DNA of 12,059 nucleotides from a virus (lineage: Duplodnaviria; Heunggongvirae; Uroviricota; Caudoviricetes). The notes beneath the pieces were generated by a model. It was not told the origin of the DNA and made no database searches. It saw only the letters and a program-made list of their open reading frames with translations. Below, one piece after another: positions 2,345 to 6,679 of this stretch. The stretch lies in IMG/VR virus record IMGVR_UViG_2713896791_000029; one strand, given 5' to 3'. The translations under genes were made by a program, and so were the position numbers. Positions within the stretch are counted from its first letter, which is position 1. Every line of letters begins with the position of its first letter.

Positions 2345-2401
2345 TGTGCCCCCATCGCTCTGATAGTCTGGTGTCGTCGGGTCCTTCCTGGAATTATGGC
2401 C

Positions 2402-2580
2402 CGTTACGGGGCGGCGACCTCGCGGTTTTTATCTGTTTATGAGAATTTTCCGGCAAAAGTCAGATCCGCTCTTCTTCTCTGTAACAGACTGTTTAACAAT
2501 GAAAATATTAAAAAAAGAAAGGATCTGACACGAGGCATTTTAGCCAGAAAATGCCATTATCAGATCCTTTCTCATTTTTG
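2402..2580 (+). other. Lambda-type cos site: cosN (GTTACG/GGGCGGCGACCT/CGCGG, overhang at 2408-2419) plus cosB-like R3/I1/R2/R1 region
   Basis: Close to collinear with the remembered left end of lambda (GGGCGGCGACCTCGCGG...TTTATGA.AATTTTCCGG...TCTTCTTC...AAAGAAAGGA...CCTTTCTC..TTTTTGT). R-element cores read CAGATCC at 2460-2466 and 2560-2566, and inverted as GGATCTG at 2520-2526, where lambda has CGTTTCC. An AT-rich I1-like segment lies between R3 and R2. Confidence 0.8.
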
Positions 2581-2599: not shown

Positions 2600-3142
2600 T
2601 TACTCGCCTTTCTTCTGTAGCAACTTTTCCGGTACGTTTCCGGTTGTTTCTTTCAAGTAATCAGCCAGTATCTGTGGGAGGTTGTCGGCAACTCTGGCAC
2701 TGGCATTACAGACTTTAACCACTTCCCTTTTAAGCCTGTCCAGCATGGCGGGGGTAATCTGTGGGAAGCTCCTTTGCATAGTAAGCGGGAGGATGTCCAT
2801 GATTGATGAAATCTGACTCGCCAGCTTTGAAAGCGCGTACAGGCAAAACTCAGTATCAATCACGTCACCGCGATCGCGATCGTTTTTAAGTTCCTGCGCC
2901 TCTGCCTGTGCTGTCAGTAATCTGATCCTGACTCGTAAAAGTTCATCATCGTCAATCTCGCCTTTGTCGTTTATAAGCTGGCTAATTGCATTGTTAACCC
3001 TATTTTCTATCACGCTGGCAACATCATAAAACGCCTCACGGCCTTTACGCTCAACGGGAGTTACTCCCCACTTGTCGAACGCTGTCGCACTTACACGGCA
3101 GCTTTTCGCCATGTTTTTTTTGTTCATCAGATGAGATTTCAT
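2600..3142 (-). CDS. Small terminase subunit, lambda Nu1-like (180 aa)
   Basis: The C-terminal two-thirds align with lambda Nu1 (LTAQAEAQELKNDRD...DTEFCLYALSKLASQISSIMDILPLTMQRSFP versus Nu1 LTRAQADAQELKNARD...ETAFCTFVLSRIAGEIASILDGLPLSVQRRFP). The N-terminal wHTH region has the same spacing with conserved NKK...A...S...W and EAFYDVASVI (Nu1: EVLYDSAAVI) but different intervening residues. Start codon choice is uncertain; the ATG at 3142 has only a weak Shine-Dalgarno. Confidence 0.85.
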   Translation of the reverse strand: MKSHLMNKKNMAKSCRVSATAFDKWGVTPVERKGREAFYDVASVIENRVNNAISQLINDKGEIDDDELLRVRIRLLTAQAEAQELKNDRDRGDVIDTEFCLYALSKLASQISSIMDILPLTMQRSFPQITPAMLDRLKREVVKVCNASARVADNLPQILADYLKETTGNVPEKLLQKKGE

Positions 3143-3143
3143 T

Positions 3144-3181
3144 AATACACCAACTTAATTACTGCTTCAGGTTGGTGTATT
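3144..3181. repeat. Inverted repeat: 11-bp arms AATACACCAAC / GTTGGTGTATT with a 16-nt spacer, ending 1 nt from the terS ATG
   Basis: Read directly from the sequence; perfect arm complementarity. Confidence 0.5.
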
Positions 3182-3317
3182 GCTTGCATCTTTCCCTTTT
3201 CATTCATAAAGATAGATCAAACAACAAAACCACCACCACCCCCCTGAAAAGGCTCATAAATAGCGAAAATCCGCGAGGTCTCCGCCCCGTAACAGGTCCA
3301 TATGCCGGAAAGGACCC

Positions 3318-3342
3318 GCAAAAAAGCCGGATTTCTCCGGCC
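3318..3342 (-). terminator. Intrinsic terminator (copy a): GCCGGA-loop-TCCGGC followed by U6 on the - strand
   Basis: A6 + GCCGGA tttc TCCGGC on the + strand, so hairpin then U-run on the - strand. Sits 5 nt after the stop of the 137-aa gene. Confidence 0.5.
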
Positions 3343-3347
3343 TTGTC

Positions 3348-3761
3348 TCAGATGGTTTTCAGTATGCGATCGATGTCGCCGTCATCGCCCGGGTTTCTGC
3401 CATCGTATGCCATGCCAGCTGATACGGCTTGTGGGCTGTGCATGTCCATAAAGTTTTCAAAGGCTGCGGTAAGCTCTGGTGCAACCTTCGGGCGTTCCTG
3501 CTCTATGGTCATGTTCAGGATGTTTTTAGCCGTATCAACATCAATACAAGGCACGTTTGCCATTGCACGTAACAGCGGCTGATAGTCGTCAGATTCATGA
3601 AGCGCCATAATCGCATCAGCGCGCGGCTTGTCCTTCTCTTCCAGGCTGTTAAGTTGATATACGGCCTCGTAGGTTGATAAACCTCTGTCAGCCATTGCCC
3701 GCGCTTCGGCTTTAAATTTACTCGCCAGCGGTAGCGTCATGATACTTTCATTCGTTGCCAT
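3348..3761 (-). CDS. Hypothetical acidic protein (137 aa) between the decoration gene and terS
   Basis: AGGGGG Shine-Dalgarno 4 nt upstream of the ATG, 12 nt after the stop of the gpD-like gene. Acidic and predicted helical. No motif I recognise; a scaffold or packaging accessory role is only a guess. Confidence 0.6.
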   Translation of the reverse strand: MATNESIMTLPLASKFKAEARAMADRGLSTYEAVYQLNSLEEKDKPRADAIMALHESDDYQPLLRAMANVPCIDVDTAKNILNMTIEQERPKVAPELTAAFENFMDMHSPQAVSAGMAYDGRNPGDDGDIDRILKTI

Positions 3762-3773
3762 CGTTCCCCCTGC

Positions 3774-4109
3774 TTATCGCGCCAGCGGCTGAACGGATAC
3801 GCCAGAACCCGCAAAGGCGGCGCATTTTTTCGCGTCGGTGTCGGCGCTCTCAGGCCAGTTAACGGCGGCAATATTGAATATCCCCGTCTTGTAGCACTGT
3901 GCTGATTTCTGCGTCGACGTGTCCACGGGGTACGAGGTCAGATAAACAGCCTTGCCAGATTCCTGACCATCCCACGGCTTAAACTCGCCATTTTCCGCCA
4001 GCATCAGCGGGGTAAATTCCTGAATAACGCCAGCATCAGCAGCAAAATGTACCAGCGTCGTGGATACCTGCTGACTACCTGCAAATAACTCAATGTATGG
4101 AGTGTCCAT
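3774..4109 (-). CDS. Head decoration protein, lambda gpD-like (111 aa)
   Basis: Aligns with remembered lambda gpD: FTPLMLAENGEFKPWDG...DTSTQKSAQCYKTGIF...WPESADTDAKKCAAFAGSGVSV versus TPLMLDTSSRKLVAWDG...DQTSTTLTFYKSGTF...[29 protein letters not shown] Shine-Dalgarno immediately after the stop of the capsid gene. Confidence 0.8.
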   Translation of the reverse strand: MDTPYIELFAGSQQVSTTLVHFAADAGVIQEFTPLMLAENGEFKPWDGQESGKAVYLTSYPVDTSTQKSAQCYKTGIFNIAAVNWPESADTDAKKCAAFAGSGVSVQPLAR

Positions 4110-4121
4110 AGAATCCCCCCG

Positions 4122-5177
4122 TTAACCAATTTTGACGGTAACAAATTTGCGAATATCTGCCGGTACCGGCTGCGGTGCGCTGTGCGTCTGCACGTACTCA
4201 ATCGCCGGATCGCCGTCCTCAATCCAGTTTTTCGGGTAAAACATGTTTTGCGTTGCGCCCGTTCTGACCGCTTCCTGATCCATAATCGCACCATAGGCCA
4301 CCAGCCCTTTATTGTTGGTGTTACCCAGGACCAGCAAATCAGGCTCAAGGAAATATTTTTCGGTGCCGTCGCTGTCAGTGTATTTGCCGGAATAGACGAC
4401 AAGGGCAATATCGCCCAGATAGCCTTTAAAGCTCACCACTTCACCCAGGTTTTTACAGGCCAGTTCTGCGGCGGATTCTGAACCACGGGAAAGGTCGTAC
4501 AGTTCGCGGAATTTTTTAAAGCTGCGTAACGTGCGCCATACTTCAGCGCCCATAATCATGACGTTTGCGGGGCAATTGCCCTGATCAGCATAAAGCTCGA
4601 TGTCATAGATTGGATCGTGTGTTTCTTTATCCAGCTCAGACCATTTTTTACCGTCAGCCTGTTCTATGATATTGCTTTCCGGGATCTTCCAGTCGATTTC
4701 ATAGCGTTCTATGCCTTCGCCCTCAATGAGGTTTTTTCCGGTCGTTACCGCATTCACCGCCAGCCATTCCACGCGTGCCTTAATGGCGTTTATCTGGCGG
4801 CGCATGTTGCCAGTAATCAGGCGCATACGGCGATAGGTAGGATCGTTAAGCTGTGCCGGATCTTCTCCAGCCATGCGCATGATGGTTTTTGTTGGATCGA
4901 TTTCGTGTTTGGGTTTCATGTAGCCTGGTTTAATCGTGCTGGTTTCGTACCCTTTATCGCGCTGGACCTGACTACCCACCATAGGCGAACAGAACGCTGA
5001 CATCGTAACCTCTTCAATGTCCAGGGTGTCCAGCATGATGTTCTGGGTGTTGAAGGTCGCCACGTTCGGGAAAAACAGCGTGGTAAACAGCGGACTGAAT
5101 TTAAATTCTGCAATATCCCCGCGATTCAGGTACGCGAAAAGCTGGTTAGTGTTAAGTGCCGTTGCTTTGCCTGCCAT
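4122..5177 (-). CDS. Major capsid protein, lambda gpE-like (351 aa)
   Basis: Multiple blocks shared with remembered lambda gpE: EFKFSPLF..LFF, PGYMKPKHEI, DPTYRRMRLI, DKETHDPIYDIELYA, FKGYLGDIALVVYSGKY, VLGNTNNKGL.AYGAI.D, YPKNWIEDGDPA.E....SAP. GGAGGTG Shine-Dalgarno; the stop of the upstream gene overlaps the start (TAATG). Confidence 0.9.
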   Translation of the reverse strand: MAGKATALNTNQLFAYLNRGDIAEFKFSPLFTTLFFPNVATFNTQNIMLDTLDIEEVTMSAFCSPMVGSQVQRDKGYETSTIKPGYMKPKHEIDPTKTIMRMAGEDPAQLNDPTYRRMRLITGNMRRQINAIKARVEWLAVNAVTTGKNLIEGEGIERYEIDWKIPESNIIEQADGKKWSELDKETHDPIYDIELYADQGNCPANVMIMGAEVWRTLRSFKKFRELYDLSRGSESAAELACKNLGEVVSFKGYLGDIALVVYSGKYTDSDGTEKYFLEPDLLVLGNTNNKGLVAYGAIMDQEAVRTGATQNMFYPKNWIEDGDPAIEYVQTHSAPQPVPADIRKFVTVKIG

Positions 5178-5468: not shown

Positions 5469-5548
5469 GATATTGAGTTATGTTGCAAATTATGAAATGA
5501 TTATCCCGATCACGAACGCCAGTGCATCCAAAAACCTCATATGCAAAA

Positions 5549-5586
5549 GCCCGATAAGAACCCTCTGACCTTATCGGGCTTTTTTT
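5549..5586. terminator. Hairpin GCCCGATAAG-loop-CTTATCGGGC flanked by an A-run and T7; bidirectional terminator-like
   Basis: Perfect 10-bp stem with 11-nt loop, T7 on the + side and A4 on the other. Confidence 0.5.
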
Positions 5587-6268: not shown

Positions 6269-6679
6269 TCAGAACGAAATATCATCACCGTAAGGGTCAT
6301 CGCCTCCCGCTGGTGGCTGATTACCCTGTGTGCCTGTGGTTTTGCGTCTGTTCCCGCCTGGACGTGCCGCGCGGGCACTGATTACGCTGTCTGCGATAAC
6401 CTGCCAGCCCTGCCGCGTTTCTCCGTTCTGTCCGGTCCACTGGCTTACCTGCATCGTGCCGGATACGCTGGCAACATCGCCTTTTTGATGTTTAGCCAGG
6501 AAGTCGGCCTGTTTGCCAAATGCGATGACCGATAACCATAACGTCGCCTGTCCGTCCTGTGCCTGGCTGCATGGCAAAGATACCGCCATACGCGCCAGCG
6601 TCATCGGTGTGCCCTTGCTGGTCTGTTTTACCTGCGGGTCGTCCACCAGCCGCCCGTAAGCGGCTATCTGTGCCGTCAT
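6269..6679 (-). CDS. Single-stranded DNA-binding protein (SSB-like, 136 aa)
   Basis: OB-fold core aligns with E. coli SSB (LWLSVIAFGKQADFLAKHQKGDVASVSGTMQVSQWTGQNGETRQGWQVIA versus [50 protein letters not shown]). Gly/Pro-rich linker and acidic C-terminal tail ...GDDISF (SSB: DDDIPF). ATGA overlap with the upstream gene. Confidence 0.8.
   Translation of the reverse strand: MTAQIAAYGRLVDDPQVKQTSKGTPMTLARMAVSLPCSQAQDGQATLWLSVIAFGKQADFLAKHQKGDVASVSGTMQVSQWTGQNGETRQGWQVIADSVISARAARPGGNRRKTTGTQGNQPPAGGDDPYGDDISF

Follow-up and report, generated by a model that had tools for sequence, protein, structure and literature searches.

A perfect inverted repeat stands directly in front of the start codon of terS, a small-terminase gene, within the 12,059 nucleotides analysed here (the whole stretch, hereafter the window), and the question that it raises is what this element is for. 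The original prediction, made from the letters alone, offered two answers: a hairpin in the mRNA could occupy the ribosome-binding space and throttle terS translation, or the repeat could be the binding site of a dimeric regulator. The repeat itself was read correctly and is real. Its arms are complementary at 11 of 11 positions across a 16-nt spacer. With the 3' arm of the minus strand ending at 3144 and the ATG of the open reading frame at 3142-3140, the gap between them is exactly 1 nt. Its parts are as follows, with cos positions counted in the packaging site described below:

3144-3154: ATG-proximal arm of the inverted repeat; plus strand AATACACCAAC, minus strand GTTGGTGTATT; cos position +134 to +144
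3155-3170, minus strand: spacer between the arms, 16 nt, CTGAAGCAGTAATTAA; its 3' end gives UAAG to an SD-like sequence
3171-3181: distal arm of the inverted repeat; plus strand GTTGGTGTATT, minus strand AATACACCAAC; cos position +107 to +117

Taken by itself, the repeat is unusual against chance, yet not extreme: 0.13 perfect inverted repeats (at least 11 nt, loop of at most 40 nt) are expected per dinucleotide shuffle of the 12-kb window, and about 10% of the shuffles carry at least one. The window holds five perfect inverted repeats of at least 11 nt in total, none of them within the listed long open reading frames. One such repeat at 1952-1974, between phoQ and the island end, would form an almost loop-less hairpin; another at 5545-5583, with 14-nt arms and a T run after them, is a probable terminator; and one at 7034-7073 lies just downstream of a 410-aa ORF (7128-8360, minus strand). 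The repeat in front of terS does not have the makings of an intrinsic terminator: its stem is rich in A/T, and the sequence after it is AATGAAATC (minus strand) or GCTTGCATC (plus strand), with no T run, and it was not among the elements reported by a terminator scan of the window.

The window is a piece of E. coli chromosome in which a phage-inducible chromosomal island (PICI) of the EcCICFT073 kind is integrated beside phoQ. The main features around the repeat are:

1-1461: open reading frame that we take to encode PhoQ, recognised by eye from its translation
2600-3142, minus strand: terS, 180-aa Nu1-family small terminase of the island (Pfam PF07471; alignments to gpNu1 and N15 gp1)
3320-3344, minus strand: intrinsic terminator hairpin with U run, 3' of a 137-aa ORF (-17.5 kcal/mol, then UUUUUU)
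3774-4109: gpD-like decoration protein
4122-5177: lambda gpE-like capsid protein
6269-6679: SSB
7128-8360, minus strand: 410-aa ORF, probably a replication protein, judged by position alone
10286-10606: AlpA
10830-12059: integrase

Toward terS, the gene order runs capsid, decoration protein, 137-aa ORF, terminator, terS. CFT073, whose island is the studied PICI EcCICFT073, shares the layout of capsid, decoration protein, 137-aa ORF and cos, and a terminator of this type precedes cos1 there too; the gene after cos in CFT073 is the 144-aa rppA, and terS takes the place of rpp here. The terS region (window 2600-3360) is matched in 843 of 5,426 complete E. coli genomes and the part that we identify below as cosB (window 3120-3260) in 767 of the same set. 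Some E. coli PICIs were already noted to encode TerS in a 2018 paper, in which these islands did not transfer and were neither mobilised nor characterised (PMC6092414). Two runs of N break the sequence, one of 64 bases at window positions 7356-7419 and one of 50 bases at 8429-8478; they fall in the 410-aa ORF and just upstream of it. In one Enterobacteriaceae island lineage, HEPN (RiboL-PSP) and GmrSD-family genes directly follow terS (L031, 2040-3507; L032, 1450-2917) and look like anti-phage defence cargo.

The identity of the TerS protein bears on which DNA it might recognise. TerS matches the Pfam profile PF07471 (E 3.6e-22, 79.2 bits against a cut-off of 30), and RefSeq relatives annotate the gene as terminase small subunit. 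It is colinear with lambda gpNu1 over the full length (36% identity, residues 6-166 to lambda 3-180), and its closest phage homologue in the phage collection searched is N15 gp1 (44% identity, residues 5-166 aligned to N15 4-166); no phage in that collection has a TerS of the island type. The DNA-binding regions of TerS and N15 gp1 are identical at 27 of 44 residues, with a difference in the recognition helix (SATAFDKW in TerS vs SVQAFDKW in N15), and this region is strongly conserved within the island family. Relatives were gathered by a homologous-protein search together with the contigs encoding the proteins; a single-protein scan of genome contigs with TerS yielded no confirmed relative. 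Enterobacter and Citrobacter islands share their gene layout with the E. coli island, and their TerS proteins are 55-58% identical. An RppC-like identity of the protein was dropped, as TerS had no match at E <=0.01 among solved structures, which include the RppC entries reported in PMC6739421. Nor does it resemble an Rpp-type protein, which has 135-153 aa and heterodimerises with phage TerS: at 180 aa it is TerS-like over its full length, and comparison with RppA of CFT073 gave no detectable similarity (E 3.2).

The distance between repeat and gene depends on the start codon. M1 at 3142 is likely the true start, since distant homologues begin MTQHLL or MAQHLL, with Leu in the position of M6, and M6 has no Shine-Dalgarno (SD) sequence; codons 2-5 of terS vary mainly at third positions. 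The internal ATG (M6, 3127), which would place the repeat 16 nt away, was rejected as the real start on the same two grounds.

Judged by alignment, terS and the upstream terminator are separated by a lambda-type cos site, cos1, with cosQ, cosN and a divergent cosB. Its elements, all read on the minus strand, are:

3308-3318, minus strand: cosQ-like block CGGGTCCTTTC, cos -31 to -21, kept in all relatives and in lambda
3276-3287, minus strand: predicted 12-nt cohesive end in cosN, GGGCGGAGACCT, matching lambda bp 1-12 bar one difference
3220-3237, minus strand: conserved G/T block GGTGGTGGTTTTGTTGTT, cos +51 to +68, proposed R3-type primary TerS site
3171-3181, minus strand: distal arm, cos +107 to +117, a conserved block with a match to the N15 core, proposed R2-type inverted TerS recognition element
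3144-3154, minus strand: ATG-proximal arm, cos +134 to +144, overlapping the terS ribosome-binding region, proposed R1-type direct accessory element

The minus strand from 3324 to 3253 aligns to lambda -35 to +34, covering cosQ and cosN, and the 40-bp cosN core contains 2 mismatches. The conserved cosN flanks extend to about 3253, and the similarity to lambda stops abruptly past +34; in BLAST, lambdoid phages match only the cosQ/cosN part (~84% identical). As expected of a lambda-type cos site, cosQ, cosN and a lambda-related 12-nt cohesive end lie directly before the small-terminase gene. The repeat occupies +107 to +144 of cos1 and the terS ATG lies at +146. The repeat had been described as following directly after a terminator, and a good terminator is indeed present (3344-3320, minus strand), but about 140 nt containing cosQ, cosN and the first cosB block intervene.

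The cohesive end of cos1, GGGCGGAGACCT, differs at base 7 from that of the island's own second cos site, cos2, and from that of lambda. Relatives sharing cosB blocks (among L006, L015, L024 and L028) carry quite different cohesive ends: GGGCGTCAGGCG, GGGCGTCAGCGT and AGGCGGCAGCGT. Since the cohesive ends vary while the cosB blocks stay, this suggests that cosN may be swapped to suit different helpers, with cosB remaining with TerS. Between cosN and the conserved block that begins at +51, a G-run/(GGT)n tract (window ~3238-3248, cos +40 to +50) varies in length among genomes, with a 6-bp deletion in L016 and an expansion of the G run in L014.

Comparison of the E. coli, Enterobacter and Citrobacter islands places the distal arm in the packaging site. 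Between -40 and +175, these islands conserve only cosQ, cosN, the +51 to +68 block, and +106 to +114 extending to +117. The consensus of the conserved blocks in the Enterobacter and Citrobacter islands reads GGTGGTGGT.TTGTTGTT for +51 to +68 and CAATACACC.AC for +106 to +117. The first of these blocks is near-invariant in the three genera and lies at the R3 position (~48-65 bp from the cohesive end). The distal element is fixed at +107 in all three genera, whereas the ATG shifts between +146 and +151; in these alignments, the position of the distal arm is set relative to cosN, not to the ATG. With its flanks (CAATACACCAACCTGAA), the distal arm hardly varies among 15 E. coli copies. One Enterobacteriaceae lineage (L021-L023) has a diverged distal block, with 3 changed positions in L021, although the TerS DNA-binding domain is nearly unchanged.

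The ATG-side arm behaves differently. It takes four forms in the 15 E. coli copies: GTTGGTGTATT in the clade of the window (11/11), and GTGGGGATATT, GTTGTGGTATC and GTTGGGATATT elsewhere (8/11 each). A fifth E. coli-type lineage has GTAGATGTATT, which is 9/11 complementary. Enterobacter and Citrobacter islands lack this arm and have a good SD there instead (AGAGGTGA, AGAGGA or AAGGTGGG). Among the E. coli relatives, the spacer is invariant in length at 16 nt and variable in sequence. The perfect 11/11 repeat is thus confined to one E. coli clade, with O157:H7 strains among its members. An exact copy of the 50-nt segment around it occurs in 360 of the 5,426 complete genomes, and 472 carry it at >=95% identity.

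A second cos site within the island served as an internal comparator for the R2/R1 architecture:

2378-2572, plus strand: cos2, with a cosQ-like block at 2378-2388, a cohesive end at 2409-2420 and a phage-like cosB

cos2 is inverted relative to cos1, and both converge on terS. CFT073 likewise has two such sites around rppA (L017, cosN at 1575 on the plus strand and at 2314 on the minus strand). In cos2, a perfect 13-bp inverted repeat lies at 2516-2528 and 2560-2572, which corresponds to +108 to +120 and +152 to +164, and its cosB also has an R3-like element and an IHF-like site. In lambda, R2 and R1 share an identical 16-bp sequence, R2 is inverted relative to R3 and R1, and, according to Murialdo and Feiss, all are TerS-binding sites (PMC9026076); the resulting perfect 16-bp inverted repeat lies at +109 to +124 and +151 to +166. 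In three cos sites (cos1, cos2 and lambda), a perfect inverted repeat therefore begins at +107 to +109.

The likeness of cos1 to the lambda cosB goes beyond this shared start. In both, cosB lies between cosN and the small-terminase gene, the adjacent gene here encodes a full-length gpNu1 homologue, and a conserved block is found at the R3 position (bp 50-65 in lambda; PMC9026076, PMC4669245). Both have an inverted element (from +107 here, R2 from +109 in lambda) with a direct copy nearer the gene, together forming a perfect inverted repeat. The differences are as clear. The repeat sequence is unrelated to that of lambda; the arms are 11 bp in cos1 and 16 bp in lambda, with spacers of 16 nt and 26 nt; and the arms are 27 bp apart, centre to centre, in cos1 compared with 42-44 bp in lambda and cos2, so that the geometry is not preserved among the three sites. 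cos1 is compressed, with its ATG at +146 vs +191 in lambda, so that the R1-like copy touches the start codon, and within the island family this R1-like copy is not conserved. A consensus scan found one IHF-like site between R3 and R2 in each of lambda and cos2; the same scan of +55 to +125 for WATCAANNNNTTR with at most 1 mismatch, a weak test, found none in cos1 or in 4 of 5 relatives. In a composition-preserving shuffle test, the similarity between the +51 block and the inverted distal arm was not significant in cos1 (p 0.15-0.7), and lambda (p 0.005) and cos2 (p 0.001) passed.

The closest sequence counterpart of the cos1 elements is found in N15. The critical R3 site of N15 has been mapped to bp 48-59/60 (PMC4669245, PMC9026076) and reads GAGGTTGTTGTTT. 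Using its mapped core, GTTGTTGT, as a probe with at most 1 mismatch, we found three matches in cos1: at +60 to +67 (plus), +110 to +117 (minus) and +134 to +141 (plus), the arrangement expected of R3, an inverted R2 and R1. The first falls within the +51 to +68 block, which contains TTTGTTGT, or GTTGTTGT itself in other genera; the other two are the two repeat arms, each matching the N15 R3 core at 7 of 8 positions, the distal arm as the reverse complement GTTGGTGT and the ATG-side arm directly. At the window-wide rate, ~0.14 matches are expected per 145 bp (Poisson P(>=3) ~4e-4, a post hoc figure in which neither arm counts independently of the other). Across the window as a whole the probe shows no enrichment (11 matches vs 11.6 expected), and its motif is of low complexity (GKT repeats). 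It recovers R3 of N15 as well as the published accessory inverted rR2 at 249-260, and it has no match in the cosB of lambda or of cos2. We class cos1 as a site that probably works like a lambda/N15-type cosB, on the strength of its cos context and the block at the R3 position; the IHF site is a feature that it does not share, and a pattern of three R copies with R2 inverted comes out clearly with the N15 core only, not in the shuffle test.

N15 thus has the phage TerS nearest to that of the island, much alike in its DNA-binding region, as well as an R3 core that resembles the +51 to +68 block and both arms, and an accessory inverted copy. In N15, however, only R3 lies upstream of the gene, and rR2 is inside the gene ~200 bp away. 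Both lambda R1 and N15 rR2 are non-essential accessory sites (PMC4669245). N15-type R sequences in a tripartite cosB have been described by the Feiss laboratory for the 'Monarch' prophage group (PMC4669245), to which we liken cos1 by description; the island element differs from N15 and Monarch in belonging to a satellite and not to a phage.

Taking these observations together, we consider it rather probable that the repeat is made up of R2- and R1-type elements recognised by the island's own TerS, that the cosB holding them is compressed, and that the perfect symmetry of the repeat is specific to one lineage. The repeat would be part of the cosB of the main cos site, in an island whose own small terminase, of Nu1 type, takes the place of Rpp. 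The distal arm (+107 to +117) would be the conserved recognition element, in the position and inverted orientation of lambda R2; the ATG-side arm (+134 to +144) would be an R1-like direct copy, and the +51 to +68 block an R3-like primary site. TerS would bind these G/T-rich repeats through its N-terminal winged-helix domain with N15-like specificity, while the rest of the protein, colinear with gpNu1, would bring the large terminase of a lambda-like helper to the lambda-like cosN, where the island DNA would then be cut and packaged. Because cosB is compressed, the R1-like copy would fall on the ribosome-binding region of terS. The 11/11 symmetry would be a derived feature of one E. coli clade that the family does not require, and the mRNA hairpin a by-product, which may reduce translation of terS there.

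A different explanation is that the repeat was selected as a translational throttle, in which the arms pair in the mRNA, bury an SD-like GGUG and hold TerS synthesis low. As originally predicted, a hairpin would fill the ribosome-binding space, and it would be stable: the 38-nt transcript is predicted to fold at -13.7 kcal/mol, the hairpin is present in both the MFE and the centroid structure of a 101-nt fold (z = -2.9), and opening -20 to +13 would cost ~17 kcal/mol vs 4.6-13.8 kcal/mol in relatives. The statement that no strong SD is present was less precise, since an interrupted SD-like UAAGUUGGUG lies partly in the arm, and its anti-SD duplex (-8.4 kcal/mol) is no weaker than those of the other E. 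coli clades (-5.5 to -7.7 kcal/mol) or lambda nu1 (-4.1 kcal/mol). The hairpin would bury its weak GGUG and end next to the AUG, much as in known 5'-UTR hairpins that sequester a ribosome-binding site, which also have a stable stem with SD-like bases. We found no sigma-70-type promoter in or near the repeat or between it and the terminator; any transcript that reaches terS should therefore include both arms. The perfect form differs from other clades by 2-3 bases, all of which raise complementarity, and the clade that carries it is common, as the 360 exact copies and 472 close matches attest.

The conservation pattern speaks against this reading. RNAalifold predicted 0 pairs across the family and hence no consensus structure; in the alignment of E. 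coli copies, the 6 of 11 pairs that vary do so solely by breaking, with 0 compensatory changes. Hairpins of the other clades have only -0.9 to -6 kcal/mol, and islands of other genera combine a good SD with the absence of a partner arm. Unlike in the known sequestering hairpins, the pairing shows neither conservation nor covariation, and one arm is kept for a reason unrelated to its partner: the distal arm persists without it, placed relative to cosN. Moreover, the hairpins formed by the same architecture would be stronger in lambda (-33.7 kcal/mol) and in cos2 (-27.7 kcal/mol), and the latter site points toward the 3' end of terS, with no downstream gene in its orientation to regulate. A variant in which the distal arm acts as an anti-SD mimic in every lineage was rejected, as the pairing amounts to only 4 bp in one Enterobacter lineage, is absent in another and yields no consensus structure; the E. 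coli clades and Citrobacter do show appreciable pairing. Since the hairpin is unconserved, the distal arm is tied to cosN and the same kind of repeat occurs in lambda and in the gene-less cos2, the throttle would be at most a lineage-specific side effect. It is physically plausible as such in the window clade, but not as the element's reason for existing, and we regard throttling as a selected function as unlikely.

It is also possible that only the symmetry calls for a separate, neutral explanation: the distal arm is functional, whereas the ATG-side arm is simply the ribosome-binding region, 8/11 complementary and then perfected by templated mutation (hairpin template-switch) or drift. An 8-9/11 quasi-palindrome is indeed common to all E. 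coli-type clades, with the perfect form in one clade only, and the perfecting differences are clustered at the adjacent arm positions 5-7. Such clustered changes are a known signature of quasipalindrome-templated mutation in E. coli. Differences that cluster and raise complementarity fit selection or quasipalindrome-templated mutation alike. What this account leaves unexplained is the G/T-rich R-like sequence present in all E. coli-type clades, with its N15-core match in the R1 orientation; in addition, the perfect form is unchanged in five sampled clade members, although the clade diverges by 1-3.5% elsewhere in the region. We find the neutral account quite unlikely. Distinctly doubtful as well is a dual use in one very successful E. 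coli clade, where a packaging repeat perfected onto the ribosome-binding site would have gained a second role: as DNA, the same 38 bp would let TerS dock, and as RNA they would slow translation of terS; if true, the amount of the satellite's terminase would be coupled to the site where the terminase acts.

Perfect palindromes with fixed spacing are typical of operators and an AlpA-family gene lies directly upstream of cos in several relatives, but an operator for another dimeric regulator of terS transcription (e.g. AlpA-type, or an island or helper repressor or activator) is very improbable, given that there is no promoter-like site nearby, that the island holds no further copies of the arm motif beyond chance, that only one half-site is conserved across genera, and that half-sites separated by 16 nt, with their centres 27 bp apart, are an unusual arrangement for a simple dimer. 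The idea of a dimeric binder was nevertheless close in spirit: the likeliest one is the dimeric winged-helix TerS, and it was the cos context that had gone unrecognised.

If the repeat is a set of TerS recognition elements in cosB, the island would be a variation on a known theme. PICI cosB differs from phage cosB and sets packaging specificity (PMC6739421). EcCICFT073 with its cos1 and Rpp (PMC6739421, PMC9026076) shares with the present island the layout, a lambda-like cosQ and cosN, an island-specific cosB and an inverted cos2, and in both the specificity would come from an island-encoded winged-helix protein. The protein here is a complete TerS, whereas Rpp is shorter and needs phage TerS, and the cosB proposed for Rpp-type islands has R3 alone, without I1, R2 and R1, and an (ACC)n block in the opposite orientation. 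In CFT073 (L017, ~1627-1639, cos +53 to +65), the proposed R3-PICI position is occupied by ACACCACCACCAC, which corresponds to the (GGT)n block of the TerS-type islands read as its reverse complement and is similar to the distal arm ACACCAAC. Related repeats may thus be read in opposite orientation by two island proteins that are themselves unrelated.

Our full-text literature search found no description of the packaging site or cosB of TerS-type E. coli PICIs, and for Rpp-type islands the cosB elements are still at the stage of proposals. The finding extends the well-understood biology of lambda and N15 and introduces no new principle. PICIs move virulence and defence genes among enterobacteria, and the match between cosB and TerS decides whose DNA is packaged. 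By supplying candidate recognition elements (cos1 +51 to +68, +107 to +117 and +134 to +144) and linking them to N15-type specificity, the analysis makes packaging specificity directly testable for a satellite family present in ~15% of complete E. coli genomes.
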